Source: Patescibacteria group bacterium (lineage in GTDB: Bacteria > Patescibacteriota > Minisyncoccia > Portnoybacterales > UBA2143). From it: DNA of 45,114 nt. Positions 3,712-38,961 of the stretch are shown here, piece by piece. The notes beneath the pieces are model-generated. The model did not search any database. It was given only the letters and a program-made list of their open reading frames with translations, and was not told the DNA's origin. The position numbers were made by a program, and so were the translations under genes. How positions within the stretch are numbered: the stretch's first letter is position 1; each line of letters opens with the position of its first letter. The stretch lies in NCBI GenBank assembly GCA_018819085.1, contig JAHJQT010000032.1:1-45114 (forward strand), given 5' to 3'.

Positions 3712-3762
3712 GCCGGAAAGGTATCGCGGAAACAAAAGCGATACCTTCCGGCTTCTTTTTTT
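3712..3762 (+). terminator. Strong intrinsic terminator between convergent genes
   Basis: Stem gccggaaaggtatcgc / gcgataccttccggc of about 15 bp, followed by a T-run. Confidence 0.7.
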
Positions 3763-5329
3763 ATTTCTTCTTTGGAGTTACCCAAAATCCCATATATTTT
3801 CCAATCATTAAGCGTGTTTGAGCTTCTAATCCTGGAATAGCTCCAAAGATAAGAATAGTAAAAGGAACCAAAATCCATTGAATAATCATACCAAAACTTT
3901 TTAAAAATCCTTTAATTCCATCATATTTATCCGGCCGTTTAGGCAAAAGCAAAGTACTATAAATAGCTGAACCGATTAATCCAATCATAGCTATCGTCAT
4001 TAATGTCCTAGTAATCCTTGGGAGATTATATGATAAAAGAGTAATATTAAATTTATCGCCTCCTAAATATAAAGGTAGCCAGCCAAGAAGAAAAATAAGC
4101 AAAGCATTAGTTGCCCAAGACCAAAAACCCTCAAGTTGAATCCATATCCAATGGATTTTTTTTCTTAAATTAATTTTCTTATTTTTATAAAAACCAAAAA
4201 ACAAAAAAGGAATATTTTCAACTCCCCATCCCCAACGCCTTTGTTGAATATAAACATTAAGAGACGTTTTAAAAAAACTATCTGATAAATTGGCATCCAT
4301 AGAAACAGGATAATTTAATGGAATAACTTTATAATCCCCATCATAATAAAGTAAATTCTGCCAAAATATACGAGAATCTTCAGAAACCATATTAACTGGC
4401 CAAAAATCAACTTCATTTAATGCAGTAAAACTCATTGATTGAGAAGAAAAAGTAGAAAGACGTTCTGGTCTTCCTTGTTGAATCATTTGCCAAAAAGTTC
4501 CTGAAGTTGCAACTACTCTAGAAATACAAGGTGCTTGCCAAATATTATTATTATAAACAGGTATAGGTTGATAGCTCGTTCTAGTTGGATTTTTAGTAGT
4601 CAAATAATGATAAGTTAAACAAGAAAAATATTTAGGATAAACTTGAGTATCAATATCAAAACAAGAAACAATAATATTTTCATAAGGAATTTTACCCCGC
4701 TCGGCGGGGTTTACATCTATTAATTCTTTCTTTGCTTGACGAGCTGCCCAAGTTGAATTAGCTCCTTTGCCAGCTAATTCACCAACAATATCTTTTGGAT
4801 GAATTGTAATTAAAAATTTATAAAAACTATCAGAATATTCTTTTTTTATTCTTTCGGCTATTTCTTGCGCAGGTTTTCCAGCTCTTTCTTCGGTCGCTAA
4901 AATAATCATCATCTTATTATTAGGATATTCCGTATCAAGTACCGCTTGAACAGTTTTTTTAACTAATTCATAAGGCTCTTTGTAAATTGGCAGAATTATT
5001 AAATGATAATAATCTTTGTAATCTTTATCTTTAATCGCTCTTAATTTTTCCATCCAGTTAATTCTTATATTATCTTGCATTTGCTTATAACTAATCCTCA
5101 AATGAAAAGATAAATAAACTGTTTTTAAAACCCAATAAACATCAAAAGTGATGATAAAAATTGCTACAAAAGCTGGGCTAATCCAAGATAAAAAAAACAC
5201 TCCCAAAAGAGTGAACCAGGCTAATGCTCCTGGTAAAATTTCAAAAGCCCGATAAATCATTCTTTCTTTCGGACTTTTTAAATCAGTTGCTTTTCCTAAT
5301 TTTAAATAATATTTATCTTTAGAAAGCAT
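3761..5329 (-). CDS. Family-2 glycosyltransferase, processive cellulose-synthase-like membrane GT
   Basis: D-rich GT-A motifs (FDIDTQ), the QxxRW motif (QQRRWGWG), and multiple TM helices. Confidence 0.65.
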   Translation of the reverse strand: MLSKDKYYLKLGKATDLKSPKERMIYRAFEILPGALAWFTLLGVFFLSWISPAFVAIFIITFDVYWVLKTVYLSFHLRISYKQMQDNIRINWMEKLRAIKDKDYKDYYHLIILPIYKEPYELVKKTVQAVLDTEYPNNKMMIILATEERAGKPAQEIAERIKKEYSDSFYKFLITIHPKDIVGELAGKGANSTWAARQAKKELIDVNPAERGKIPYENIIVSCFDIDTQVYPKYFSCLTYHYLTTKNPTRTSYQPIPVYNNNIWQAPCISRVVATSGTFWQMIQQGRPERLSTFSSQSMSFTALNEVDFWPVNMVSEDSRIFWQNLLYYDGDYKVIPLNYPVSMDANLSDSFFKTSLNVYIQQRRWGWGVENIPFLFFGFYKNKKINLRKKIHWIWIQLEGFWSWATNALLIFLLGWLPLYLGGDKFNITLLSYNLPRITRTLMTIAMIGLIGSAIYSTLLLPKRPDKYDGIKGFLKSFGMIIQWILVPFTILIFGAIPGLEAQTRLMIGKYMGFWVTPKKK

Positions 5330-5337
5330 GCTTGTAG

Positions 5338-5412
5338 TCTATTGTATTGAGAATTTGAAAACTATAATTGAAGAAATTCAGAAATGGTGTTTAGTAATTC
5401 CTGAATTAACTA
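5338..5412 (-). repeat. Conserved leader element, family 1, copy a, immediately 5' of the GT2 gene
   Basis: About 85% identical over about 75 nt to 6636..6710. Both copies abut an ATG start. Confidence 0.7.
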
Positions 5413-5433
5413 GACTATAGTTAGTATAGCAAT

Positions 5434-6177
5434 TTAATTTAAACTTTTAAAGTCCTTATCAAGAAACTTTCCTACTACATTATTTACTTCAACAATAATA
5501 TCCTCATGACGCCTATAATCATGCTCTGAATTTAGTTCATGTATAATTTTTGGCTCTAATACTGCTCGATAAGTCGTTTTTACATCTTCTGGCTCAACTA
5601 ATATGTCCTTAGTACCATAAAAAAATAACTTTGGTTTGGAACATTCTTTTAAACCATCGAGTATATTATGTTTAGTTGCATCTTCAAAATAGTTAAGAGG
5701 TAAATCAAATCTTTTTTTATTTTCCATATCATTGGGTGGCATATCTCTATACGATATTTTTACACCATCAGTTAATTTACTCTCATCAAATTCACTTGGA
5801 CCTGCATGAGACATAACCGCTATAATATGAGTCACATATTCGTTACTGGGGCCTGCAAGCATAGCCATACTTCCACCTCTACTGTGTCCCATTAGAATTG
5901 TCGGCTTATTACCAAAAAGATCAATTAATTCATTGATTGCTTTTAGATAATTGGTCATTGTATACAAATCAATACTACCAGGACTTTCCCATGTGCCAGG
6001 AGGATCAAAAGAAAAAGCAAAATATCCTTTATTCGATAGATAATCAACGTGACTAGTCATATGAGCGTAATCTTTTGTATCTAATTGACCTGGTAATAAA
6101 ATAGCAAGCTTAGAAGAAGTCTTATCCCCACGTGAATAGACTGCTAGTTCAAAACTTTTAGTTTTCAATATTTCCAT
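5434..6177 (-). CDS. Alpha/beta-fold hydrolase
   Basis: Nucleophile elbow GHSRGG. The Asp and His are positioned downstream as expected. Confidence 0.6.
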   Translation of the reverse strand: MEILKTKSFELAVYSRGDKTSSKLAILLPGQLDTKDYAHMTSHVDYLSNKGYFAFSFDPPGTWESPGSIDLYTMTNYLKAINELIDLFGNKPTILMGHSRGGSMAMLAGPSNEYVTHIIAVMSHAGPSEFDESKLTDGVKISYRDMPPNDMENKKRFDLPLNYFEDATKHNILDGLKECSKPKLFFYGTKDILVEPEDVKTTYRAVLEPKIIHELNSEHDYRRHEDIIVEVNNVVGKFLDKDFKSLN

Positions 6178-6217
6178 ATTTTAATTTATTAAAAAATATC
6201 ATAAAGAAAAAAATTAA

Positions 6218-6628
6218 TTATAACAATTTTTCTAAATCACAAAGAATATTATCTAAGTCAGAATCTAATATTTTTGCGGTATCAATAAAATTTCCTCTTT
6301 TTTTATTCCAATGAGCTACGAAATTACATCTCTGATCAATAATATATTTAATAATCTCTTCTTTTTTAATAGACTTATAATTAGCATTATTTTTTAATTC
6401 TGTGTTTTCAAATGAAATAGCTCTTGTATCTCTATCAAAAAGATTAGCTACTCTTATAATTAAATAATCCTGTAATATTCTGTTTAGTTTTCCTAATTCG
6501 TTTTCATTGCCAGAAATCACAGGAGTGGTCCATTCCAAAACAAGTTCCGAATTTGTATTTCGTAACATCTTTAAAGCTTCCTTGCAGTTTCTTATTATAT
6601 ATAATAACTGACCAAAATATCCAGTCAT
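6218..6628 (-). CDS. Hypothetical protein, possible HEPN-domain protein
   Basis: C-terminal RCNFVAH fits the Rx4-6H HEPN motif. Co-transcribed with the hydrolase. Confidence 0.3.
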   Translation of the reverse strand: MTGYFGQLLYIIRNCKEALKMLRNTNSELVLEWTTPVISGNENELGKLNRILQDYLIIRVANLFDRDTRAISFENTELKNNANYKSIKKEEIIKYIIDQRCNFVAHWNKKRGNFIDTAKILDSDLDNILCDLEKLL

Positions 6629-6635
6629 ATCACGT

Positions 6636-6710
6636 TCTATTGTATTGAGAATTTAAAAACTATAGTCCAAGAAATCCAGAAATGGCATATAGTAATTCAT
6701 GAGATTACTA
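6636..6710 (-). repeat. Conserved leader element, family 1, copy b, 5' of the HEPN-like gene
   Basis: Aligns with 5338..5412. Confidence 0.7.
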
Positions 6711-6727
6711 CATACAGGAATTGAACG

Positions 6728-7258
6728 TTAATCTTTGTCTTTAGGAATTAATGAAGCCACAGGCCCTACACACAAAAATGAATCGTTCATTTTGTCGCCA
6801 AATTCGAAATCCTTAGATAACACTTTTTTACAGGCCTCAACAAAGTCAAAATAAAAATATTCTATAACAAACACTTTTAACTCTTTTCCATCTGTTTTTA
6901 CATAATCTGGATGTTTCTTATATGGATGTACTCCATAAGGATCATTCTTGTTTTGAGTCACAATTATAGTCCCTGGACCAGACATATGAACCATACCACA
7001 TCTTAAATTAGAATACATCTGCTTTCTCAAATCGTGATAGCGCTCTGGGAACAATTCAATAATAGCATTTTCAAAATGTTTTTTACTAAGTCCAGGCTTT
7101 CTCCATTCACACTTAGAATCTATACATTTCCCTAAAAACTCGATTCCACTACAAACCAATAGAAAAGACATGTAAGGATCAATAAGAATAATTTCTCCTA
7201 ACTTTTCGATAAAGTGCTCTTTGATGAAGTCCTTAGGGTAGATATCCCTTTGTAACAT
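6728..7258 (-). CDS. Hypothetical protein (176 aa)
   Basis: ORF with an ATG. Downstream of the 64-aa gene in the same operon. Confidence 0.4.
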   Translation of the reverse strand: MLQRDIYPKDFIKEHFIEKLGEIILIDPYMSFLLVCSGIEFLGKCIDSKCEWRKPGLSKKHFENAIIELFPERYHDLRKQMYSNLRCGMVHMSGPGTIIVTQNKNDPYGVHPYKKHPDYVKTDGKELKVFVIEYFYFDFVEACKKVLSKDFEFGDKMNDSFLCVGPVASLIPKDKD

Positions 7259-7310
7259 AATATTCTCTTCTTAATTATCCCTACTGCCATTGCAGTTTTA
7301 CAGGAAGCCA

Positions 7311-7505
7311 TTATTTTTTCTTTTTTTTATCAATCTCCTTGGCTTTATTAACTAGATAAGAAGCCACATCCCATGGTTTTTTCTTTGCGACCTTATAATT
7401 ATCTATATTTTTATGGCGGATAAAGAAAATAAGATCGTTAGTTTTTTCTCTTTTTCTATTCCAACCAACAATAAATCCTTCTGATTCTTTAATTTTTTTA
7501 GGCAT
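7311..7505 (-). CDS. Small basic hypothetical protein (64 aa)
   Basis: ORF with a lysine-rich C-terminus. Preceded by the family-2 leader. Confidence 0.35.
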   Translation of the reverse strand: MPKKIKESEGFIVGWNRKREKTNDLIFFIRHKNIDNYKVAKKKPWDVASYLVNKAKEIDKKKKK

Positions 7506-7523
7506 AGATTAATATTTGATCAT

Positions 7524-7582
7524 TTTTATATCCCAAACCTCTCTTTAGAATCAATTCATCTTTAAATTAAATTTAACAAAAA
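7524..7582 (-). repeat. Conserved leader element, family 2, copy a
   Basis: About 85% identical to 8299..8357 (tttttatatYccaaaYctc...agaatcaattca.ctttaRa.taaatttaacaa). Confidence 0.65.
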
Positions 7583-7657
7583 AAAATATAACCAAAAACA
7601 AACTGAAAAACTACTGGCAGGACTCTTAATTTAAGAGTATCTCTTTATGAAAAATAA

Positions 7658-8287
7658 TTACTTCACGATGATTTTTTTTGTCTCTACGCCAAAAATTTCT
7701 CTTAGATGACCATCAACAAGCGTATCGTAAGTATCACATTCTTTAACTAGCTCTTTATTAACTATGTTTGATTCAGATAAACTTAATAAACTGACGTTAC
7801 TACCAAAATCCCTTAAACGTTTACACAGAGGAATAAAATCAGAGTCATTAGTTAACAAAAATAACCTCTCTAATTTACCAGTTGCCGATAACTGCAATGC
7901 GTCACAACATAACTCAGTATCAACCCCTTTTTCACTTTTGCTACACCTATCACGATACTTACTAGGTACAGTCTTCAAAAATTCATCATAACCCTTTGAC
8001 CCCCGTAATTTTCCGCCACAATACTTAAAATAAACATCTCTTATTAATCCTGGTTCTTTAAAATCTGGCAATGACAGATACTCTTCAATACGTGGATCAC
8101 CTTTAGCAAAATAATAAACAGCTCTCTTATACTGTCCGTTATGCAAATCTCTTAAATTAAGTATAAAATGATGGATCAATTTCAAAGGATCTAATTTATG
8201 TTCTTTGAAATTTTCTCTCTTCTTCTGAAGAACATAAATTTGAGAGATTAAAGCAGAACCATCTATAAAAAAATAATTACTAATCAT
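7658..8287 (-). CDS. NYN-domain (LabA/PIN-like) putative ribonuclease
   Basis: Motifs FIDGSAL, KGVDTELCCD and LLTNDSDFIPL. Confidence 0.65.
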   Translation of the reverse strand: MISNYFFIDGSALISQIYVLQKKRENFKEHKLDPLKLIHHFILNLRDLHNGQYKRAVYYFAKGDPRIEEYLSLPDFKEPGLIRDVYFKYCGGKLRGSKGYDEFLKTVPSKYRDRCSKSEKGVDTELCCDALQLSATGKLERLFLLTNDSDFIPLCKRLRDFGSNVSLLSLSESNIVNKELVKECDTYDTLVDGHLREIFGVETKKIIVK

Positions 8288-8298
8288 AATTTAAATTC

Positions 8299-8357
8299 TT
8301 TTTATATTCCAAATCTCAGTCCAGAATCAATTCAGCTTTAGAATAAATTTAACAATA
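8299..8357 (-). repeat. Conserved leader element, family 2, copy b
   Basis: Aligns with 7524..7582. Contains TTGATT-18-TATAAA; the TATAAA ends about 12 nt upstream of the ATG. Confidence 0.65.
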
Positions 8358-8371
8358 CCCTAGATAAAACA

Positions 8372-9316
8372 TCAACTCTTTACTTTTCTAAGATACTTAC
8401 CAAAAACCTTATGAAAATTTTCTGCTGTTACTTGCAACCAAGCAAAATATTCGTCCCATTTATCAGTATCATTGATACTACCCTCTCTTGATAATTTAAT
8501 GCGACTGGCTTTTTTATTTTCCAATGGCATCCATTCTATTTTTTTTGTTCCTAACTCACTCTCTATTTGTTTTTTCTGTATTTCAAGTCCTCTGAAAATT
8601 TCTTTTTTTCTTGGAATATATATTTCACATGACATAACACCACCAAGACTATTAACAGTTAATGCTATATGATAATCAGAACTACCAAGACTAATATCGT
8701 GCCAATGTCGAGGTCTGGGACTCCTTAATTTTAAATTAGTCCCATTTTGTTTTGCAAATTCATTAAATTTATCCCAAAAATTAAGTTGTTCAACTTTAGT
8801 GTCAGTTAAATTTGATTTTCCTGAAGATTGTTTTATTGCTTTCGCCCAATCATTTGGTTTGGCAATAATTTGAAATTTAGGTGCAAAAGGTGAATCAGCT
8901 ATTTGCCATAATTCCATCTTAATAGCAAAAAAGTTTATTTCTTCATCCGTATGTTCATTAAGCCAGTTAATAGCTTGTTTGTGTTCATCTCTTACATCTT
9001 TAACTATCCAAATAATTATTTCTGCATCATATCCTGAAGCATAAGTTATTATCTTACCAAGATGATCGTGATCAGTCGCTTCTAATTGATTCTCAATGAT
9101 AATCTTTCTACCAGTATTTTCTTCTTCTGCTAATATATCAACACTAAATTTACCAACACTAGCTTCGGTTTGTATTAAAGTTAAATCAATGCCTATTTCA
9201 TCACTCAATAAAGATAAGTTTTCATCTTCAGATAACCAATTAGTAAAATCAGTAGCTTCGTGATTCCACGCTTTTCGTAAATCGATTTGTTTTATTTTAG
9301 ATAAATTTTGTGACAT
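8372..9316 (-). CDS. DUF4268-family protein, possible PD-(D/E)xK nuclease fold
   Basis: N-terminus WNHEATDFTNWL...VGKFSVDILAEE...IIENQLEATDHDHLGKIITYA is typical of DUF4268. Confidence 0.55.
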   Translation of the reverse strand: MSQNLSKIKQIDLRKAWNHEATDFTNWLSEDENLSLLSDEIGIDLTLIQTEASVGKFSVDILAEEENTGRKIIIENQLEATDHDHLGKIITYASGYDAEIIIWIVKDVRDEHKQAINWLNEHTDEEINFFAIKMELWQIADSPFAPKFQIIAKPNDWAKAIKQSSGKSNLTDTKVEQLNFWDKFNEFAKQNGTNLKLRSPRPRHWHDISLGSSDYHIALTVNSLGGVMSCEIYIPRKKEIFRGLEIQKKQIESELGTKKIEWMPLENKKASRIKLSREGSINDTDKWDEYFAWLQVTAENFHKVFGKYLRKVKS

Positions 9317-9491
9317 ATGATTTATGATAAACCTAATATTTTTCAGCTTTCTCTGTCTATTTAATTTTAAGACTATTAATAATCGGCGTCAAATTTTCTT
9401 CAATTATTTCTTGTAATTTTTAATCCATTTTTTTGTTCTAATAAGTTTTTATTTGAAAATAGATATAACTAAAGTGATAAACAAAATCAAC

Positions 9492-12383
9492 CTATGCTAA
9501 AATATCTAAATTCCTTAAGTTACTTTCAATAAGAGTAATCTCTTCTTGCATTTTATTATCTTTTTTATAATCTTTTTGAATTTTCTTATATGCATACATT
9601 ATTGTTGTATGATCGCGCTTAAAAATATTACCAATAACAGGAAAAGAACTTTTAAGATGTTTTCTAATTAGATACATTGAAATTTGCCGCGGATATGCAA
9701 ATTCTTTTTTTCTAGAAATACTTTTAATTTCATTTTCCTTAATACTGTAAAAATCTGCGACTCCCTCTATAATCTTATCAGTAGATACATCAAGAGATTT
9801 TTCAAAACGATCGATATAATCTATAATTTTTATATTTCTTTTGCCTTTTTTACCTTCAAATATAGATGATTCTTCTTTAGGAATATCGTTAATAGTAATT
9901 ATTTCATCATCTCCGTATAACTTCGGCAAAGCGCTATTTATTATTTGTCGGACTCTTTCTCGACTTATTTTATATTTAAGAGATATTTCTTCTAATGTAT
10001 GTTTTCGATTTTCGTTTATGCCAAACTTCATTTCAACTATTTCTTTAAGCCTACCCCCAAGCACATCTATACGAGATACTAAAACATTTGCGTCATTTGT
10101 TTCTATATTACGATTAATAATATTTATATAGTCTTGGTGTAATGGTTTGTCTACGAACATTTCATATATAATTGCTCCAATTTCTAATTTTTTCATTATT
10201 ATATGCCCTGAAATATCAGTATGCGCATCATCAGTTTTTTGTCCAAGATTACCATTATTATATGCCTCTGCTACTGAAAGATTAAGAAATTCATCTAAAA
10301 TCAATTCTGCAAGATATAACTGCATAATAATTGATTTTTCTACATCAGACATTTTTGGATCTTCTCCAAAATAAATTTTGTTAATTGGATTTTTTCTATT
10401 TATAATTATAAATCCTGCCTCTTCTCCGAATTGCGCTCGAGCTTTTTGAATTTGCTCTGGCATATCTCTGAATTTCCAACCACGAAAAATTCCGGCGTCT
10501 TTGCCTTGCGGTGGTATCCTATTTTTATCATGGACATAAATTTTCGCATTACATTGATAATTATTCGATATCGCGATGACATTACCATTTTCATTACTTT
10601 TTTGACCTATAAAACCAATTGGTATCATTGCATTATTAGATTTACTGATTTTTTCTTTAGGAACTTTTACTTTTTTATCTAATAATATAATCGATGAGTT
10701 ATCAGATTCTAAATTAATAACTTCAGCAGTTTTTACTTTTTCTAAATCAACAAACAAATATAGTTTACTTTTCCTATTAGTTACTACAGAAAGTTCATTT
10801 GGATAAAATTCTATACCATTTTGAGGATAGAACAAATCACTTTGTATCACAGATACGAAACAAACAGCTTGAGATTCTTCACAAGTAGCAGTTATCTTAC
10901 CAACTGCATTCAAGGTGTTGGATTTAATTTTTATATGTTTTGAAATTATGCCATCCCTATTCGCATCCTCTTTTTTAAGAATAATTGTATCCGGTGTAAC
11001 TGAAATTTGTTTTTCATTACAAAGTAGAAACACTTTTGCATTTTGAGAAAAATCATCGATATTTATTTTAAGCTGTAAATAATATTGTTTATCAACTGTT
11101 ATTTTTATATTTTCTCTAGCAAACATTAACTCATTAATTTTTCTTGAATCTGGATTATCAAATGTTCCACCACTTTTTTCGCCAACAAGATCGGAATATA
11201 TCTTATTTAATTTTTTAAATACTTCTGAATGTCGTTTTTTTGTTTCTTCTGATAAATCACTTGCATCTTCTTCAGAATTTTTAAATTCATCAAATATTGG
11301 ATACAATAAATCTTTAACTTTATTAGAAAAATATTTATAAAACAGTTGAGATTTATCAAAACCATTTCTAGTATCAGTTAATATTTCTTCAGGAATCTCC
11401 TCATTAAGTTTTTCGTCAATAATTTCACGTGCATTAGTTAATTTTATATAACCAAAAATATTATTAGCCCCTAAATTTTTTTCAAATCCAAAAAAATCTA
11501 AATCATATACTGAATTATCATAATTAGCATCGTAAACCAATATTTTATTTGCATTCTCGCCAATTTTTTGTACCAAATCAAACTTAGCTTTATATAAACA
11601 AATATCTATTTCAACTGGCTTGAATTCTTCATACGGTTTAAAATATAACTTTTTGTCTAAAATCTTAGAAACATCGTTTGAATATAATTTTTCTACAAAT
11701 TTATATTCTATTTTTTTAGACACAGGATTTTTTTTGTTTTCAGTTTCAATTAATGTAATATTTCTATCAGGATTACTGTTAATAAATCGAAGCATGTATG
11801 AATCCGAAAGTCCTCTAAAAAGATTTTGAAACTCTGGCAAGTTAATTTTTTTAAAAGAAGGAAGCTCGAATTCTATAACTGTCCCATTTTTTTTAATATT
11901 ATACTTTTGTCTATATTTTTTTAATTCCTTTTTACTTAATCTATTGTGAGAATAAATTTGATCATCTTCTTTATAATAAAACGAGCAAATATATAATTCA
12001 TCGTCTTTTATTGAATAAAGATTACTTGTTGAAGATGGATTTAAAAACAAAACATCAGTCAATCCCTGACCATAGAGACCTCTTCCATCATGTCCTTTCT
12101 TCGATCCACTTTTAATTGCGCCGTATTTCCCAAAATTTTCTTCTATATCTTTTTGATTCATACCTTCCGCATAATCGATAACTCGAATAACTCTAGTTCT
12201 TCTATCTATATATATTTCAATACTCTTAATATAATCTATATTTATACCTTTCTTTTCTAATCGATTATAACTTTCATCAGAATTAGTTATAAGTTCAGTA
12301 AAGATTTTGTATATATCTCGTAGCGCTTTACCATGTCTTCTACTGGCAAATCTTTTTGAATTTTTTATTATGTGTTCTGGCAT
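9492..12383 (-). CDS. Large multidomain protein: N-terminal GHKL (Bergerat-fold) ATPase, then sigma-70 region 4-like HTH, then a C-terminal DnaA domain IV-like DNA-binding domain
   Basis: GHKL motifs: N-box ELITNSDESY, G1 VIDYAEGM, G2 GRGLYGQGL. FGINENRKHTLEEISLKYKISRERVRQIINSALPKL resembles sigma-70 regions 4.1/4.2. PRQISMYLIRKHL...IGNIFKRDHTTIMYAYKKI resembles DnaA domain IV. Confidence 0.6.
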   Translation of the reverse strand: MPEHIIKNSKRFASRRHGKALRDIYKIFTELITNSDESYNRLEKKGINIDYIKSIEIYIDRRTRVIRVIDYAEGMNQKDIEENFGKYGAIKSGSKKGHDGRGLYGQGLTDVLFLNPSSTSNLYSIKDDELYICSFYYKEDDQIYSHNRLSKKELKKYRQKYNIKKNGTVIEFELPSFKKINLPEFQNLFRGLSDSYMLRFINSNPDRNITLIETENKKNPVSKKIEYKFVEKLYSNDVSKILDKKLYFKPYEEFKPVEIDICLYKAKFDLVQKIGENANKILVYDANYDNSVYDLDFFGFEKNLGANNIFGYIKLTNAREIIDEKLNEEIPEEILTDTRNGFDKSQLFYKYFSNKVKDLLYPIFDEFKNSEEDASDLSEETKKRHSEVFKKLNKIYSDLVGEKSGGTFDNPDSRKINELMFARENIKITVDKQYYLQLKINIDDFSQNAKVFLLCNEKQISVTPDTIILKKEDANRDGIISKHIKIKSNTLNAVGKITATCEESQAVCFVSVIQSDLFYPQNGIEFYPNELSVVTNRKSKLYLFVDLEKVKTAEVINLESDNSSIILLDKKVKVPKEKISKSNNAMIPIGFIGQKSNENGNVIAISNNYQCNAKIYVHDKNRIPPQGKDAGIFRGWKFRDMPEQIQKARAQFGEEAGFIIINRKNPINKIYFGEDPKMSDVEKSIIMQLYLAELILDEFLNLSVAEAYNNGNLGQKTDDAHTDISGHIIMKKLEIGAIIYEMFVDKPLHQDYINIINRNIETNDANVLVSRIDVLGGRLKEIVEMKFGINENRKHTLEEISLKYKISRERVRQIINSALPKLYGDDEIITINDIPKEESSIFEGKKGKRNIKIIDYIDRFEKSLDVSTDKIIEGVADFYSIKENEIKSISRKKEFAYPRQISMYLIRKHLKSSFPVIGNIFKRDHTTIMYAYKKIQKDYKKDNKMQEEITLIESNLRNLDILA

Positions 12384-12387
12384 AATT

Positions 12388-13023
12388 TTAAAACTTTAAT
12401 AATTCAATAATATAATTCATAAAAGACAAAGCTTCTGTATTTTTTGTATTTTTACAAATATCTTTTAATTTTAAAATGCGTTTCTTAATTACTTCCTTTC
12501 TTGTAAAGGACATAACTCCTAAAAAAGAGAATATTTCAAACTCATTTATGCTTTCTTTATTTTCTTGCCATTTCTTAAATAAATTCGAATTTATTATTTC
12601 GTCTACATCGCCCTCAATTGATTTTATTCTTTTAGATTCGTTCTTTTTAGCTAAAACTTTTTTTTGTAGATTTGGGTTATTCAACATTTTTTTTGTCTCT
12701 TTCGCTACTTCTTTTCCTAATGTTGTAATTGAAAAATTAGTTCTAATATTTCCAACAGCCCAATTTCTATCAGTTGGTCTTAAATGCAATCTTAGTAAAT
12801 TAGAGATTCTATATAAATCAGGATATTCTTTGAATGTAATTAATGAAAACCTCTTAGGAAAAAATTTAAACATCGCTATGCCAATATATTCAAAATACAA
12901 TGGTATTCTTTTTTCTTCTAAAAAATACATAGTAAAAATCGCCAATTTATCTTGCGTAATATTTTCATATTGGTTTTCTTGAAAAGGATTAAGTTCTTTT
13001 ACAAATTTTTTATAAGCATCCAT
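12388..13023 (-). CDS. Hypothetical protein (211 aa), operon partner of the GHKL fusion
   Basis: ATG ORF with a 4-nt gap to the downstream gene. Confidence 0.4.
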   Translation of the reverse strand: MDAYKKFVKELNPFQENQYENITQDKLAIFTMYFLEEKRIPLYFEYIGIAMFKFFPKRFSLITFKEYPDLYRISNLLRLHLRPTDRNWAVGNIRTNFSITTLGKEVAKETKKMLNNPNLQKKVLAKKNESKRIKSIEGDVDEIINSNLFKKWQENKESINEFEIFSFLGVMSFTRKEVIKKRILKLKDICKNTKNTEALSFMNYIIELLKF

Positions 13024-13024
13024 A

Positions 13025-13252
13025 TTATAATTTAAATTCCTTATTTTTAGGAAAATGAAACTTTGATTTAGTTTCTTTTACTTTACGCTCAATTTCTGAA
13101 AAAATTTTATTTATCTCTTCTTCTTTATAACTATAAGCACTTCTATTAGAGCAATTACCAAGAACTTTAATTCTTTTCAGAACTTCATTTGTCCGATAAG
13201 TTGCTAATTTTTTGAATCTTTCTCTTTTAATCTCTTGATTTTGTTTGGTCAT
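13025..13252 (-). CDS. Small hypothetical protein. The ORF could extend to 13303 (92 aa); the MTKQNQ start is preferred on promoter spacing.
   Basis: 1-nt gap to the next gene. TTGTAT-17-TTATAT lies upstream. Confidence 0.3.
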   Translation of the reverse strand: MTKQNQEIKRERFKKLATYRTNEVLKRIKVLGNCSNRSAYSYKEEEINKIFSEIERKVKETKSKFHFPKNKEFKL

Positions 13253-13584
13253 ATTTTTAATATGTATATAATAAATACTATCACTATAATACAAGGATAT
13301 CATATCCTTATATTATTTGTCAATACCTTAGCTGTAGATAAAAAATATAAATAAATTTCATATAAAAAATACAATTGATCCTATCTTTCACCTAGACATG
13401 ATGCACTTAGTCTATACTTGTCCGTATTAAGACGTTAATATATAGAGTAATAGAAACTATTAGAAATTGATTATTACATCGTACACGCACATTTAGAACG
13501 TTCTATATGAGGAGGGGGTGTCTTCTAGATTTCCATGGCAGTAACGTACAGACGTAAGTTATTAATAAATGTTATACTGAATCT

Positions 13585-14346
13585 ATGGATAAAAATGAAA
13601 TAATCAAACAAATTCAAGATTTAAAGGCCATTACAGATGATTTAGAATCTGTGATAGTTAAGCTTATAAAAATTGATTCGGATAAGATAATTGATAGACA
13701 TTCTAATCACATTAAAAATCTAGAAGTTAAAAAACTCAAACAGGAACAATATCAAATTAAAAGAGGATATAGAATATTAATAAAAAAAATTAAAATACAA
13801 TTTGAGTTTTTACTTAAAAAATTAGATATTCGTAAGAAAATTAAAATTATCCCAGAATGGGCATTAGATGCAGACAACATTTTCGTGATTTGTTATACAC
13901 AAACTAACGAGCATGGCGATATGAATTATGATCTATCAGAATTATTCGATGTTCCTAAAAAGATAAAATCATATTTAATACAGCTTAATAAATATACAAA
14001 TAAAAAATTTAAAGAAAATAAAAAATATCCCCAGAAAGTTCCAAAAAATACTACTCCTTTAATTTTGTTTGATTCAAAAACTGGCATAGGTAGTGTTAAT
14101 GGATCTAAATTTGAGTTTCGTATCGGAAACAAGCCATACATATTTTTTAAAGAACTTTATAAAAATATAAACAAACCAATCCAAAGAAAGAAAGCACTAG
14201 AGTTAATAAATTTAATTGATTTAAGTGGAACAGAACAAGCAAAGCGATTGAATCGTTTTATTACAAGATTAAGACGAGAACTTGGACTAAATGCGAATCA
14301 TTTAATATTAAAACACAGTATAACCTTAAAAGGCGTAAAAAAGTGA
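13585..14346 (+). CDS. Hypothetical protein (253 aa), first gene of the integrative-element-like module
   Basis: ATG ORF with a strong terminator downstream. Confidence 0.4.
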   Translation: MDKNEIIKQIQDLKAITDDLESVIVKLIKIDSDKIIDRHSNHIKNLEVKKLKQEQYQIKRGYRILIKKIKIQFEFLLKKLDIRKKIKIIPEWALDADNIFVICYTQTNEHGDMNYDLSELFDVPKKIKSYLIQLNKYTNKKFKENKKYPQKVPKNTTPLILFDSKTGIGSVNGSKFEFRIGNKPYIFFKELYKNINKPIQRKKALELINLIDLSGTEQAKRLNRFITRLRRELGLNANHLILKHSITLKGVKK

Positions 14347-14397
14347 TATCAACAGTTGACCTATAGTTAGTCTAATTTATCAGAAGTTAAAATCATG

Positions 14398-14426
14398 ACA
14401 AGCTTAATACATAAGCTTGTTTTTTA
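14398..14426 (+). terminator. Intrinsic terminator
   Basis: Stem acaagctt / aagcttgt with a 7-nt loop, followed by TTTTTT. Confidence 0.65.
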
Positions 14427-14523
14427 ATTTTCTAATAAAAATATGACTATAACCAATCAACCGAGAGGGCCGCCACAATAGAATGGTTGTTCCTTAATTA
14501 ATAATTAAAATTAATAAAAAAAT

Positions 14524-14844
14524 ATGATAACAAAAGAACAATATAAAGAAATCTACGATAAATTTATTACCAGCTCACAAACCAAAGAAGACGTCTATAT
14601 GTTAATGCTTGGAATTGGCATCAACTGGAACAAAGTCAGAAAAATTATGAATCATCTTTATCCTTGGTTCTGGGATGATAATTGTATAGCTATTATAAAA
14701 ACACTTTTCAGAGATGACATAATAATCAAAGAACAATATATATTAGGAATTATTCGAAATTGGCTTTATCAAGCATGGCGAAATGATAAATATGAATTCA
14801 AAAATAAATGGTCTGAATCATCAATTAAAGAATTATTTTTATAA
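14524..14844 (+). CDS. Hypothetical protein (106 aa)
   Basis: ATG ORF. Confidence 0.35.
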   Translation: MITKEQYKEIYDKFITSSQTKEDVYMLMLGIGINWNKVRKIMNHLYPWFWDDNCIAIIKTLFRDDIIIKEQYILGIIRNWLYQAWRNDKYEFKNKWSESSIKELFL

Positions 14845-14849
14845 AAAAC

Positions 14850-15455
14850 ATGAGTGAAAAGCAAGGATGGATAAAATTATATAGAAAACTACTACATGAT
14901 CCAATTTTTACAAGCGACAAAGGACTAAAAATTTGGATCTGGTGTTTATTAAGAGCAAATCACAAAAATACTGAGATATTTTTAGGAAGACAAAGAATAA
15001 TACTTAAACAAGGACAATTTGTATTTGGACGTTACACAGCGAGTGAGGAGTTAAAAATATCACCATCAACAACTTGGTTCTGGATAAAAAAATTAAAGAA
15101 CGACGATTATATTGACATCAAACCAACTAATAAATTCAGTATTGTAACAATCAAAAAATGGAAAGAGTATCAAACATTATTAACAACAAATGAAAAACAA
15201 GTGAACACAGACAATAATGATAATAATGTAAATAATATTGATGAAGCTGCGCTTCAAGAAATTAATTATATGAAGAAGCAGCTTCTCAATATTGGAGTAA
15301 GACCTAAACTCGTAAATGAAATGAATAAACAAAAAGAGTTTTGGAGAGCAAAGAAAAACATTATTCGTAAATGTTTAATAAATAAAGAAATCGAAGATAA
15401 AGCAGCTTATATTGCTAAGATCTATTATTTCTGGAAAGAGAATGAAGCTAAATGA
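14850..15455 (+). CDS. Possible replication-initiator or replisome-organizer-like winged-helix protein
   Basis: N-terminal GWIKLYRKLLHDPIF...IWIWCLLRANH pattern resembles what I recall of plasmid/phage replication-initiator N-terminal regions. The C-terminus is basic. Confidence 0.3.
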   Translation: MSEKQGWIKLYRKLLHDPIFTSDKGLKIWIWCLLRANHKNTEIFLGRQRIILKQGQFVFGRYTASEELKISPSTTWFWIKKLKNDDYIDIKPTNKFSIVTIKKWKEYQTLLTTNEKQVNTDNNDNNVNNIDEAALQEINYMKKQLLNIGVRPKLVNEMNKQKEFWRAKKNIIRKCLINKEIEDKAAYIAKIYYFWKENEAK

Positions 15456-15664
15456 CAGGGGTTATAAACATTTGCATACTATCATACAATGCTCATGTCC
15501 TGCCTCTGAAAATTAAAAAAATGATTACAGTTGCAGAATTTAAAAAACTACATAATACAAAAACATTAGAATTAACTGATGAAGAAATAGAAGCAGTGAT
15601 TAATTTACTGTATCAATTAAGCGATCTATTATTTGAAATTTGGATCGAAGAAAAAAATAAATGA
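15452..15664 (+). CDS. Small hypothetical protein. An internal start MITVAEF at about 15521 is possible.
   Basis: Overlaps the neighbouring genes by 4 nt, so it may be translationally coupled. Confidence 0.3.
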   Translation: MTGVINICILSYNAHVLPLKIKKMITVAEFKKLHNTKTLELTDEEIEAVINLLYQLSDLLFEIWIEEKNK

Positions 15665-17199
15665 AATTAAACAGCGAATTACAAACAGGAATTATTTATT
15701 ATCGAGTTAGCACCGAAGATCAAGCTGAACATGGTGCTAGTTTAATGTACCAAAAAAGAAACTGTTCTGAATTTGCTGAAAAAAATAATATTAATGTCTT
15801 AAGACTATTTCATGACGATGGCGTCTCAGCAAAAACAACGAATAGAGCTGATTTGCAAGACATGCTCAAATACTGCAACAAAAACCATAAAAAGATTGAC
15901 TGCCTAATAGTCTATAAAATTGATCGACTCTCTAGAAATGTTAATGACTATACAAATATTCTGATCTTTTTAAATAAATTACAAATAAAACTAGTTTCTA
16001 CCACAGAATCAATAGATGATACGCCCACAGGTAAATTTATCGGCAACGTAATGGCTGCCTCTGCTCAATTTGATAATGACTTGAGAAGCGAGAGAGTTTC
16101 TTCTTGCATGATGGAGAGAGTAAGACAAGGACAATGGTGTTGGAAAGCTCCTCTTGGCTATTTAAATAGAGCAAACGAATATAGCCAAAAAATAGTTGTT
16201 CTAGATAAAGAAAAAAGCCGTTTCGTTAAACTAGCTTTTGAAAAATTCGCTACCGAACTTTATATTTTAGAAGACATTAGAAAATTAATTAATAAGAGAG
16301 GACTTAAAAACAATAGCGATAATGAAATTTCCTCTCAATTAATGCATAAAATTATAACTAATCCATTTTACTGTGGTGTGCTAAAAGTCAAAGGAGATTT
16401 ATACAAAGGAAAACATGAAAAAATAATTAGTGAAGAAACTTTTGATAAGTGCCAATCATTATTAAAAAGAAGCAATAGAGGAGAAAATATCTCAAGAAGA
16501 AGAACTAATGTTGATTTTCCTCTAAGAAATTTTGCAATCTGCTCTGTTTGTGAGCGTCCATTGACTGCTGCTTTCTCAACAGGTCATCGAGGTGGTAAAT
16601 ATCCATATTATCGTTGCTATAATAAATATTGTTCAGCTAAAAAATCTATTAATCAACAAAGTGTTGAAAATGACTTTTTAGAACTTTTAAAACAAATCAC
16701 TCCCAAGAGAGAATATTTAGATATATTTAAACCAATTGTAATTGATGTTTGGAACAAAAATTATAATGATCTTAATAAACGACGAAATGATATAATGAAA
16801 AAAATTGAGAAATTAAATAAAGAAAAAGAAAAATTAATTGATATGAAAAAGAAAGAATTGTTACCTGATGAAGATTTTAAAGAAGCATTCGAAGAAATAA
16901 AAGAGAAAATACGAAAAGAGATAATCTTAAGCGAAACCAGAATTGAACAATTCAATCCAACTGAAGCGATTAACTATGTATTCAACTTTATTACAAATAT
17001 ACCTGAGTTTTGGAAGAAAGCTGATTGCCAACAAAAAATTCGTTTACAGAGTTTAATTTTCACTGAAAAGCCCATTTATACCTATCCAAAGTTTGGAACC
17101 CCCAAAATTTGTTTAATCTTACAGCAAAAAACGCCTATCGCGAACGATAGGCATCTCATGGTAGCCCTACGGGGAGTCGAACCCCGGTTGCCAGATTGA
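15661..17199 (+). CDS. Large serine recombinase (integrase)
   Basis: Resolvase N-terminal domain with the catalytic Ser in YYRVSTEDQ, a recombinase domain, a zinc ribbon (CSVCERP...YYRC) and a coiled coil. The 3' end reads into tRNA-Glu. Confidence 0.8.
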   Translation: MKLNSELQTGIIYYRVSTEDQAEHGASLMYQKRNCSEFAEKNNINVLRLFHDDGVSAKTTNRADLQDMLKYCNKNHKKIDCLIVYKIDRLSRNVNDYTNILIFLNKLQIKLVSTTESIDDTPTGKFIGNVMAASAQFDNDLRSERVSSCMMERVRQGQWCWKAPLGYLNRANEYSQKIVVLDKEKSRFVKLAFEKFATELYILEDIRKLINKRGLKNNSDNEISSQLMHKIITNPFYCGVLKVKGDLYKGKHEKIISEETFDKCQSLLKRSNRGENISRRRTNVDFPLRNFAICSVCERPLTAAFSTGHRGGKYPYYRCYNKYCSAKKSINQQSVENDFLELLKQITPKREYLDIFKPIVIDVWNKNYNDLNKRRNDIMKKIEKLNKEKEKLIDMKKKELLPDEDFKEAFEEIKEKIRKEIILSETRIEQFNPTEAINYVFNFITNIPEFWKKADCQQKIRLQSLIFTEKPIYTYPKFGTPKICLILQQKTPIANDRHLMVALRGVEPRLPD

Positions 17200-17233
17200 A
17201 AATCTGACGTCCTAACCATTAGACGATAGGGCC
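17159..17233 (-). tRNA. tRNA-Glu, anticodon UUC, encoded CCA
   Basis: Manual fold: acceptor ggcccta/tagggct, anticodon stem tcaga/tctgg, loop ttTTCaa, T-loop ttcgact. Confidence 0.7.
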
Positions 17234-25048: not shown

Positions 25049-25090
25049 ATATTTATATTTTAAACTTTTTACTGATTAAATCAAGGTGTA

Positions 25091-25156
25091 TCAAGGACGG
25101 TCTTTAAAATATACGTCCTTTACAAAGGACGTAATATATTTAAGGACCGTCCTTTT
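25091..25156. promoter_or_regulatory. Operator-like cluster of nested palindromes built on AAGGAC(N)GTCCTT half-sites
   Basis: aaggacggtc (25093) is complementary to gaccgtcctt (25145). Inner palindrome tacgtccttt-acaa-aggacgta at 25112-25133. aaggaccgtcctt at 25142-25154 is itself a near-palindrome. Confidence 0.5.
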
Positions 25157-25174
25157 ACACATTACCTCTCCATC

Positions 25175-33026: not shown

Positions 33027-33674
33027 TCATGGCTTCATTAAAATTACTTCCATTTCTTTTCCAATCAAATCTTTCTTTTTTATAGTTAATTTATCAACAG
33101 CTTCTATTCCATTTAATCCCATCTCTTTTAAAAAGTCTTTAACATCATCTAATTTTATCTTAATTCCAGGAAGATTATAATGCATAGGAATAATAATTCT
33201 TGGTTCAATTTGATTAACTATTTTTACAGCTCTTTTCGCTTCGATTGTACAATTTCCTCCAACAGGAATCATTAAAATATCAATATTTCCAATTTTCTCT
33301 ATTTGTTTATCTTCTAATTTATCTTGCCCAAAATCTCCTAAATGACAAATTCTTATTTTATCAATTTCCATTACATAAATAATATTCTGTTCTTTTTTTT
33401 CTTGATCATGAAAACTACGACAACCAACTATGCTAACTCCTTTAATCTCATATTCTCCTGCGCTATCAATAATAAATGGTTGACTGCCTTCCATTCCTGT
33501 AATCGCCTTAACATTATTATGATCATAATGTTGATGAGAAACAGTCACAATATCCGCACTACAACGAGGCGGATTTAATCCGGTCTTTTTATCAAACGGG
33601 TCAGTTAAGACAATTAAATGACCTCCTTGATTAGTTATTTTAAAACAAGAATGTCCGTACCAATTTATAATCAT
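33027..33674 (-). CDS. MBL-fold metal-dependent hydrolase (UPF0173-like)
   Basis: HQHYDH motif. N-terminus MIINWYGHSCFKI. Confidence 0.7.
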   Translation of the reverse strand: MIINWYGHSCFKITNQGGHLIVLTDPFDKKTGLNPPRCSADIVTVSHQHYDHNNVKAITGMEGSQPFIIDSAGEYEIKGVSIVGCRSFHDQEKKEQNIIYVMEIDKIRICHLGDFGQDKLEDKQIEKIGNIDILMIPVGGNCTIEAKRAVKIVNQIEPRIIIPMHYNLPGIKIKLDDVKDFLKEMGLNGIEAVDKLTIKKKDLIGKEMEVILMKP

Positions 33675-33711
33675 AAATTTAATATTAATATTTTATCATA
33701 TATTTAAACCC

Positions 33712-37607: not shown

Positions 37608-37717
37608 AGATAAAAATACTCGTTAATTCGGGTATTTTTATTTTTAAAATATTATTTCTTTCTATAGACCTATAATAAAACAATAGCTATAATGATTATA
37701 AATAGGATTCCAAATTT

Positions 37718-38863: not shown

Positions 38864-38961
38864 TAAATAAATCTTTAATAAATTATATAATAAATACTCG
38901 TTATTCGAGTATTTTTATTAACTTGCTTTTTAGCTTAAATTCTGTTATTTTATCTCTATAT

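Follow-up and report, generated by a model that had tools for sequence, protein, structure and literature searches.

The window analysed here is a stretch of 45,114 nt (contig JAHJQT010000032.1 of GenBank assembly GCA_018819085.1, from a Patescibacteria group bacterium) that contains two pairs of short duplicated intergenic repeats, here called F1 and F2, within an array of genes on the minus strand. Our reading, to which we give a probability of about 0.6, is that F1 is the right-end module of a family of cassettes found in Portnoybacteria-like Patescibacteria that lack a transposase and resemble mobile insertion cassettes (MICs), and that F2 is a duplicated sigma-70-like promoter. The evidence that carries the reading of F1 comes from a third copy of F1 in a metagenome contig, where an insertion that ends in F1 can be compared with the corresponding empty site, and from end motifs in the window that match those of that insertion.

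The F1 and F2 repeat pairs

Pairwise alignment and blastn place the F1 copies, both on the minus strand, at 5338–5412 (copy A, upstream of a gene for a 522-aa family-2 glycosyltransferase, GT2) and 6636–6710 (copy B, between a 176-aa gene and the gene for a HEPN-like protein). The F2 copies, also on the minus strand and delimited in the same way, lie at 7523–7579 (copy A, upstream of a 64-aa gene) and 8299–8355 (copy B, upstream of a 209-aa NYN gene). The two F1 copies share 84 % identity over 75 nt without gaps (86 % over 72 nt and 82.4 bits in blastn) and the two F2 copies 84 % over 57 nt (63.5 bits), in agreement with a preliminary description of this DNA, made by reading the sequence, which had reported two duplicated families at about 85 % identity. 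It had also named AT-rich low complexity as a possible source of the similarity. This was checked using 20 first-order Markov shuffles of the window, which has a GC content of 29 %. The best self-match in each shuffle scored only 34.6–48.2 bits and, as both pairs lie above the shuffled maximum, neither is a chance product of AT bias. The next-best direct repeats of the real window have about 70–78 % identity over 40–44 nt. A diversity-generating retroelement repeat pair was considered and rejected, as the mismatches show no preference for adenine and a reverse transcriptase is lacking.

Among the self-matches of the window, the F1 and F2 pairs rank first and third by score. Second is an 84-nt self-complementary palindrome (25083–25163, 83 %, 68 bits), which is intergenic and lies beside a tRNA-Leu gene. 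Other repeats seen were a 34-nt direct repeat (91 %) with one copy just after tRNA-Val (37610–37642) and the other just before tRNA-Ala (38887–38919), and a 30-nt inverted repeat (93 % complementary) with its arms 29.6 kb apart, one inside the GT2 gene (4027–4056) and one at 33673–33702.

All four repeat copies are intergenic, lie upstream of minus-strand genes and fill most of the intergenic region in which they are found, and every gene in 3761–13303 is on the minus strand. The earlier statement that each F1 copy ends exactly at an ATG is only approximately correct. Between the end of the F1 similarity and the ATG there are 8 nt for copy A (522-aa gene) and 7 nt for copy B (136-aa HEPN-like gene), and the distances for F2 are 19 nt (copy A, 64-aa gene) and 13 nt (copy B, 209-aa gene).

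A third F1 copy with filled and empty sites

The third F1 copy (copy C) was found at 7368–7443 of metagenome contig Ga0307422_1000341 (L012) and is 91 % identical to copy A and 87.5 % identical to copy B. This contig has a GC content of 37 %, and its other blastn matches to the window were just three, of 30–53 nt and with chance-level E-values. Copy C stops 4–8 nt before the ATG of a core gene of the NIF3 family. In relatives with NIF3 proteins that are 93 %, 90 %, 89 % and 87 % identical to that of L012, a tRNA-Lys gene is followed after 4–14 nt by the NIF3 ATG, and a contig from another sample (L102), with flanks 100 % and 99.5 % identical to those of L012, includes the exact empty site, ...CCCCTAC followed directly by TAAAATG. 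The filled site in L012 reads ...CCCCTAC, then the insert, ATTTTTAGCTATCGTATTGAGATTAACAAAAT-ATG...138-aa ORF (open reading frame)...TAA-F1...TCTCAATACAATAGA, and then CTAC and TAAAATG. The 4-nt sequence CTAC aligns to both junctions in L012 and is present as a single copy in the empty site of L102.

The insert in L012 is 530 bp long, is made up of the 138-aa ORF and F1, and is located at the 3' end of the tRNA gene. It is bounded by an inverted repeat, CTATYGTATTGAGA, with the inverted pair represented by CTATCGTATTGAGA at 6918–6931 (plus strand) and CTATTGTATTGAGA at 7425–7438 (minus strand). With two mismatches allowed, 0.2 matches to this inverted pair are expected per locus, and the inverted similarity of the two ends reaches about 50 nt. 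No Pfam, NCBIfam or PADLOC profile matched the 138-aa protein, its sole profile match being to a PHROG family of unknown function, and its sequence suggests a minimal nucleotidyltransferase. MICs have been defined as having imperfect inverted repeats, a short target-site duplication and one or more passenger genes, with no transposase (PMC3913671). Because the insert in L012 has inverted-repeat ends, a target duplication and a passenger gene and lacks a transposase, it fits this definition, sharing all three criteria with MICs such as MIC231 of Bacillus cereus and mic-qnrD of Proteeae. Hence, the right terminal inverted repeat corresponds to the invariant 19-mer of F1, and F1 represents a new family of transposase-less mobile insertion cassettes, which are themselves a known kind of element. 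Among the functions offered in the preliminary description, the one worded as MITE-like (miniature inverted-repeat transposable element) or recombination-related was, therefore, essentially right for F1, given the inverted repeats, the CTAC duplication and the filled and empty sites.

On the minus strand, F1 (about 76 nt) consists of a hairpin, AATTCAG(G)AAT-N11-ATTTCTGAATT, followed by a spacer, TCTT....TATAGTTTT, and then the terminal 19-mer, AAATTCTCAATACAATAGA, which is identical in copies A and B. In copy A, the fold analysis places the hairpin (11 bp stem, 11 nt loop) at 5375–5407, the inverted-repeat core is at 5339–5352 and a -10-like hexamer, TACAAT, is at 5341–5346, 11 nt from the GT2 ATG, all on the minus strand. 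In copy B, also on the minus strand, the hairpin (6673–6706) is degraded by a 1-nt insertion and mismatches, TACAAT is at 6639–6644, 10 nt from the ATG, and the terminal 28 nt are intact but for one position. Conservation in F1 is highest over the 28 nt at its 3' end, beyond the hairpin, and no pairing is predicted for the invariant segment. The paired region covers 33 nt, with an outer stem around the hairpin in copy A only.

Folding of the minus strand had been proposed as a check and it revealed a hairpin in F1, kept in all three copies with 91 % of cells paired (sense-strand z-scores of -2.6, -1.7 and -1.9), and no fold signal in F2 on either strand (z-scores of 0 to +0.6). The 11-bp stem is intact in the CTAC-flanked copies A and C and degraded in the internal copy B, and an intact hairpin in A and C fits a role in end recognition or in insulation of the cargo. 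The presence of the hairpin in all copies, together with the z-scores, would also be expected if F1 were a structured cis-regulatory RNA (of the 5' untranslated region or riboswitch type). Against this, Rfam searches with F1 and F2 returned nothing at the gathering threshold nor at E-values up to 10, there is no covariation, the prediction leaves the invariant segment unpaired and the downstream genes are functionally unrelated. A variant of this idea, that F1 encodes an antisense micro-ORF of 30–32 aa, draws on a frame (YCIENLKTI...) that is open in all three copies and has an ATG in A and C. However, copy B has no start codon, and an open frame of 25 codons has a probability of about 0.1 at this composition. 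As read from the sequence, every difference between A and C is non-synonymous, the differences between A and B are spread 5/2/5 over the codon positions, and the micro-ORF was rejected on this substitution pattern. We consider both forms of this explanation very improbable.

A putative 8.0-kb cassette in the window

The protein encoded downstream of F1 copy A is a family-2 glycosyltransferase according to the names given in its sources, PF13632 is found on its homologues, of which there are thousands, and the gene is a core gene of Portnoybacteria-like Patescibacteria. In view of an in-frame TAG directly upstream of the GT2 ATG, the possibility of an alternative genetic code or of N-terminally extended ORFs was dismissed. 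F1 is absent upstream of the GT2 orthologues at 87 %, 83 % and 74 % amino acid identity, in which the GT2-DksA-RecG neighbourhood is kept. In the 74 % relative, the gene order is TsaD, tRNA-Glu, two other genes, GT2, and from this order the stretch of the window between GT2 (5329) and tRNA-Glu (17159) is lineage-specific. F1 copy A lies exactly at the junction between this lineage-specific insert and GT2. Judged from these neighbourhoods and from the filled and empty sites of L012 and L102, F1 is tied to the cargo upstream of it as a terminal module and is not the leader of the gene downstream. The proposal that the repeats precede unrelated genes and have moved independently of those genes was thus well founded.

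At the right boundary, the end of F1 copy A, TCTCAATACAATAGA (5338), is followed on the minus strand by CTAC (5334–5337), AAGC and the GT2 ATG, and this CTAC, 4 nt upstream of the ATG, is the right copy of a putative 4-bp target-site duplication. The putative left end (13318–13337, minus strand) consists of CTAC (13334–13337) followed by the 16-mer AGCTAAGGTATTGACA (13318–13333), which agrees with the left-end motif of L012, AGCTATCGTATTGAGA, at 13/16 positions and has the opposite orientation to the F1 terminus. The combination of CTAC with a left-end match of 13/16 or better, beginning no more than 8 nt after it, was seen at one place in the window and in 0/300 shuffles. In about 200 kb of Patescibacteria loci, the relaxed motif CTANNGTATTGANA was confined to the five proposed ends. 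The left end is convincing only in combination with the CTAC duplication, which was derived independently.

On the strength of these end motifs and of CTAC, we propose a putative transposase-less cassette of 7,996 bp (5338–13333, minus strand) with the same ends and duplication as the L012 cassette, and the best reading of the whole array is as a single cassette belonging to that family. The 8-kb region is missing from the GT2 neighbourhood of relatives, and its putative empty site would be ...TTTTTTATCTAC joined to AAGCATGCTTTC. The strains that were recovered all have the same internal arrangement as the window.

The cargo comprises genes for 92-aa and 211-aa proteins, a 963-aa protein, a DUF4268 protein, the NYN protein, the 64-aa and 176-aa proteins, the HEPN-like protein and an alpha/beta-hydrolase, and no transposase or integrase was detected among the cargo proteins of the window or of L012 using Pfam, NCBIfam, PADLOC and PHROGs. 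The DUF4268 protein (8372–9316) has a full-length match (E = 4e-124) to PDC-S11, a candidate single-gene defence system in PADLOC. In the 963-aa protein (9492–12383), which has a weak MzaA-like match, an N-terminal GHKL-type ATPase is accompanied by sigma-70 region 4 and a DnaA C-terminal helix-turn-helix. Two labels used in the preliminary description, GT2 and NYN, proved sound, the first from the PF13632 matches noted above and the second from a Pfam match to the 209-aa protein (E = 8.5e-12). The HEPN-like label had no profile match behind it for the 136-aa protein and depends on an R-x5-H motif read in the translation. This protein (6218–6628) has a 43 %-identical homologue that aligns from residue 6, and because the alignment begins there the ATG at 6628 is the true start. 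The 116-aa NCBI model of the gene is, therefore, probably too short, with a start 20 codons too far downstream. A distant homologue of the HEPN-like gene is not accompanied by F1. Near the 5' end of the NYN gene, a poly-A run (8262–8269) has one extra A in two strain variants, which shortens the called gene from 209 to 173 aa and could represent a phase-variation-like frameshift.

In integrons, small co-oriented accessory genes are each followed by an attC site, an imperfect palindrome after the ORF. The array in the window is likewise a co-oriented set of small, unrelated, defence-like or toxin–antitoxin-like genes, with F1 found at ORF 3' ends and forming an imperfect hairpin with bulges in copy B, and an attC-like function had been among the earlier suggestions. 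It did not survive examination. No tyrosine or integron integrase was found with profiles among 20 ORFs at 257–21353 (ORFs beyond 21353 were unscanned), where the sole recombinase is a large serine recombinase (15661–17199) outside the array. F1 does not have the R''/L''-L'/R' architecture of attC sites, which require at least about 57 nt. Instead, its pairing extends over 33 nt, with the outer stem confined to copy A, its conserved part is outside the hairpin and its junctions are transposition-like. F2 is unstructured, and the L012 insertion is at the 3' end of a tRNA gene with a 4-bp duplication and not at an attI or attC site. We, therefore, give hardly any credence to an integron-like cassette array with attC-like repeats.

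Beyond the left end of the putative cassette, 13338–17233 forms a separate small integrative element that includes a DnaD-like helicase loader (14850–15455) and the large serine recombinase. The 3' end of the serine recombinase ORF overlaps the 3' end of tRNA-Glu (17159–17233, minus strand).

Putative outward promoters and internal copies

At all three F1 junctions TACAAT is 10–11 nt from an ATG, and both of the independent insertions, in the window and in L012, lie upstream of a core gene, 4 nt from its start codon. As an insertion separates the downstream gene from its earlier promoter, F1 probably carries an outward promoter that would give a very short leader. The constant spacing between TACAAT and the ATG would reflect either selection for tolerated insertions or target choice. 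Many genes in the window have a -10-like hexamer within about 6–12 nt of the ATG, though the positional enrichment of such hexamers upstream of ORFs is too weak to count as evidence (n=42). Of the 43 ORFs in the window, only about 6 are preceded by a Shine-Dalgarno-like motif at the usual position of -14 to -5, and expression from short leaders or without a leader may, therefore, be widespread in this genome. Hence, the near-leaderless transcripts with no Shine-Dalgarno sequence predicted earlier for F2 would be nothing special here.

The mechanism that we favour is one in which the cassettes would be moved in trans by a transposase or recombinase encoded outside them. Insertion would sever the downstream gene from its own promoter, F1 would supply an outward-reading replacement, and the F1 hairpin may insulate the cargo or bind the mobilising enzyme.

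F2 is made up of an AT-rich tract followed by TTGATT, an 18-nt spacer and TATAAA. The conservation ends at TATAAA, and its limits are those expected for a sigma-70-type promoter. The TTGATT-18-TATAAA arrangement described at the outset is indeed present in both copies on the minus strand, in copy A at 7549–7554 (TTGATT) and 7525–7530 (TATAAA), with the ATG 19 nt downstream, and in copy B at 8325–8330 and 8301–8306, with the ATG 13 nt downstream. TTGATT is also present in the presumed tRNA-Lys promoter of the relatives of L012, as read from the sequence. An inverted partner for F2 was looked for and none was found. F2, thus, looks like a sigma-70-like promoter module duplicated on either side of the NYN gene (F2B-[NYN]-F2A, 776 nt spacing). 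Its likeliest origin is insertion of a module by recombination at a promoter, of which the duplication itself is the part observed.

A rival explanation is that both families are plain promoter or operator modules for a shared regulator, duplicated by ordinary recombination and with no role in mobility. All copies are upstream of genes and contain -10-like hexamers near the ATG, and the 11-N11-11 inverted repeat of F1 and the GAAT-TG-ATTC dyad of F2 could each be an operator. The two families also fit the description of putative mobile promoters (Matus-Garcia, Nijveen & van Passel 2012, PMC3488235), which are sequences of 50–100 nt that share 80 % identity or more and precede non-homologous genes, and some of which are common to distant taxa (PMC3488235), as F1 (75 nt) and F2 (57 nt) are each 84 % identical and the downstream proteins are unrelated. 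However, the comparison of L012 with L102 revealed that F1 arrives as part of a unit that includes the upstream ORF and has inverted repeats and a target duplication at its boundaries. The invariant 19-mer and the inverted repeat are one and the same sequence, no regulator is common to the window and the L012 contig, and no cognate regulator was recognised. Putative mobile promoters are a purely descriptive category, whereas F1 has an identified vehicle, a cassette with inverted repeats and a target duplication. For F2 the promoter or operator explanation overlaps with our own. As an account of both families, we consider it rather unlikely.

F1 copy B is followed by ACGTGAT-ATG, and neither CTAC nor a left-end motif is present beside it. 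It is, therefore, not a second transposition junction. From the layout F1B-[HEPN-like, hydrolase]-F1A (1298 nt spacing), we propose that copy B is an internal module junction, which would have arisen when a circular [HEPN-hydrolase-F1] molecule recombined with a resident F1, and the F2 pair may be due to the same kind of module insertion. There is a precedent in the PeSL elements of T4-type phages, which consist of a stem-loop and promoter motifs flanking ORFans in hyperplastic regions (Arbiol et al. 2010, PMC2839356), and for which integration of a circular [module + repeat] into a resident repeat was demonstrated, along with repeat-ORF-repeat layouts and insertion and deletion of modules (PMC2839356). 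This raises the question of whether the repeats are merely linkers of this type, with all of the shuffling due to homologous exchange and mini-circles. The repeat-module-repeat layout of both families, at the spacings given above, and the structure of F1, a stem-loop with a -10-like box in a promoter-like segment, among ORFans in a region that is variable among relatives, would be in keeping with this (PMC2839356), and a PeSL-like mechanism is our preferred model for copy B and for F2. However, L012 has its insertion at a site with no resident F1, and inverted-repeat ends with a 4-bp duplication are not products of homologous exchange. PeSLs use homologous recombination in phages and have no inverted-repeat ends or target duplications, in contrast to the transposition-type junctions of F1 in a cellular genome, and F2 has no stem-loop. 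As an explanation for the whole, PeSL-like exchange is, therefore, quite improbable.

Further searches added little to the three F1 copies. With nhmmer, the profiles of F1 and F2 detected no additional copy, either in the window or among the roughly 700 kb of loci that were fetched. In viral contigs, the F1 19-mer had one match, which was coding, patterns for the middle of F1 and for F2 had none, and the relaxed inverted-repeat pattern had 63 matches, all due to chance or coding. In genome contigs, the F1 19-mer had 13 matches, none with flanking similarity. One exact 19-mer (4190–4208 in Candidatus Taylorbacteria MHRX01000043.1), located where a 728-aa ORF has its 5' end and with ccgATG next in the sequence, has no other F1 similarity around it and is probably a chance match. 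The metagenome scan returned L012 only, from a collection that is incomplete, as the source organism's own JGI contig was missed, and BLAST against plasmid and phage collections found nothing relevant. The suggested search for extra copies thus produced a third copy of F1 and none of F2.

A number of observations weigh against our reading of F1 and F2. The statistic for CTAC with the left end is partly post hoc, the site having been noticed before the duplication was derived from L102, and a plain Smith-Waterman comparison of the L012 left end with the window, made without the CTAC criterion, was not above chance. The two ends of the window cassette (13318–13333 and 5338–5352) match each other at only 12/18 positions. 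The strains recovered for the window's species did not include one with an empty site, so that the 8-kb unit is defined by motif and duplication evidence, and the absence of CTAC and a left end beside copy B makes the origin proposed for that copy a model. For the promoter, there is no canonical -35 sequence in F1 at 16–18 nt from TACAAT. A consensus promoter scan, which in this AT-rich DNA performed no better than on shuffles, did not report TACAAT as a -10 box in copies A or B, and the one site that it placed within F1, ATGCCA-18-TATAGT in copy B, is not shared by copy A. The F1 hairpin has no covariation support, from three sequences only, and was not called as a terminator by the scan. Pattern scans of the contig collections found no autonomous partner or transposase with matching ends, and only three copies of F1 are known. 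For F2, there is no third copy by nhmmer in the window and fetched loci or by pattern scans of viral and genome contigs.

Relationship to known elements and implications

Though the L012 cassette conforms to the definition of a MIC, the F1 cassettes differ from the known MICs in having no known cognate insertion sequence or transposase, in the length of the right end (about 76 nt, with a hairpin) compared with the left end (about 20–50 nt), in landing 4 nt upstream of start codons in a Patescibacteria host and, in one case, in carrying an 8-kb defence-like array with internal repeats of the end module. The Correia elements (CREE) and other MITEs are also non-autonomous, bounded by inverted repeats with a short target duplication, located beside genes and able to supply promoters. 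However, they are short, non-coding and highly repeated, with a TA duplication, whereas the F1 elements carry ORFs, generate a CTAC duplication and are known in only 2–3 copies, and as coding elements with three end copies only they were not assigned to the MITEs. Ends of the IS200/IS605 type have subterminal hairpins at both ends and neither inverted repeats nor a target duplication. An end of this type (PATE-like) was rejected, as the F1 cassettes have inverted repeats, a 4-bp duplication and a hairpin at the right end only.

The mobile elements of the ultra-small, uncultivated Patescibacteria (candidate phyla radiation) are, to our knowledge, poorly catalogued, and we know of no good understanding of how defence islands are assembled. 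A concrete family of non-autonomous cassettes is documented here, with a polymorphic insertion backed by a filled and an empty site, and the 8-kb array of one member includes a candidate defence gene (PDC-S11) and a gene with a NYN nuclease domain. In annotation, F1 should not be treated as a gene-specific leader, and the motif CTANNGTATTGANA together with the F1 model provides a handle for finding further members and the transposase that mobilises them. All three junctions directly precede an ATG, an indication that the gene downstream is re-promoted by the end module, and insertions would then be tolerable in very compact genomes. A bolder view, which we regard as doubtful, is that F1 is the recognition site of a new cassette-mobilising system of Patescibacteria that inserts at CTAC-N4-ATG, re-promotes the displaced gene by means of an outward promoter of its own and stacks modules at resident end-modules. 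If this were true, defence genes could accumulate in an integron-like manner with neither an integron integrase nor a transposase encoded by the element.

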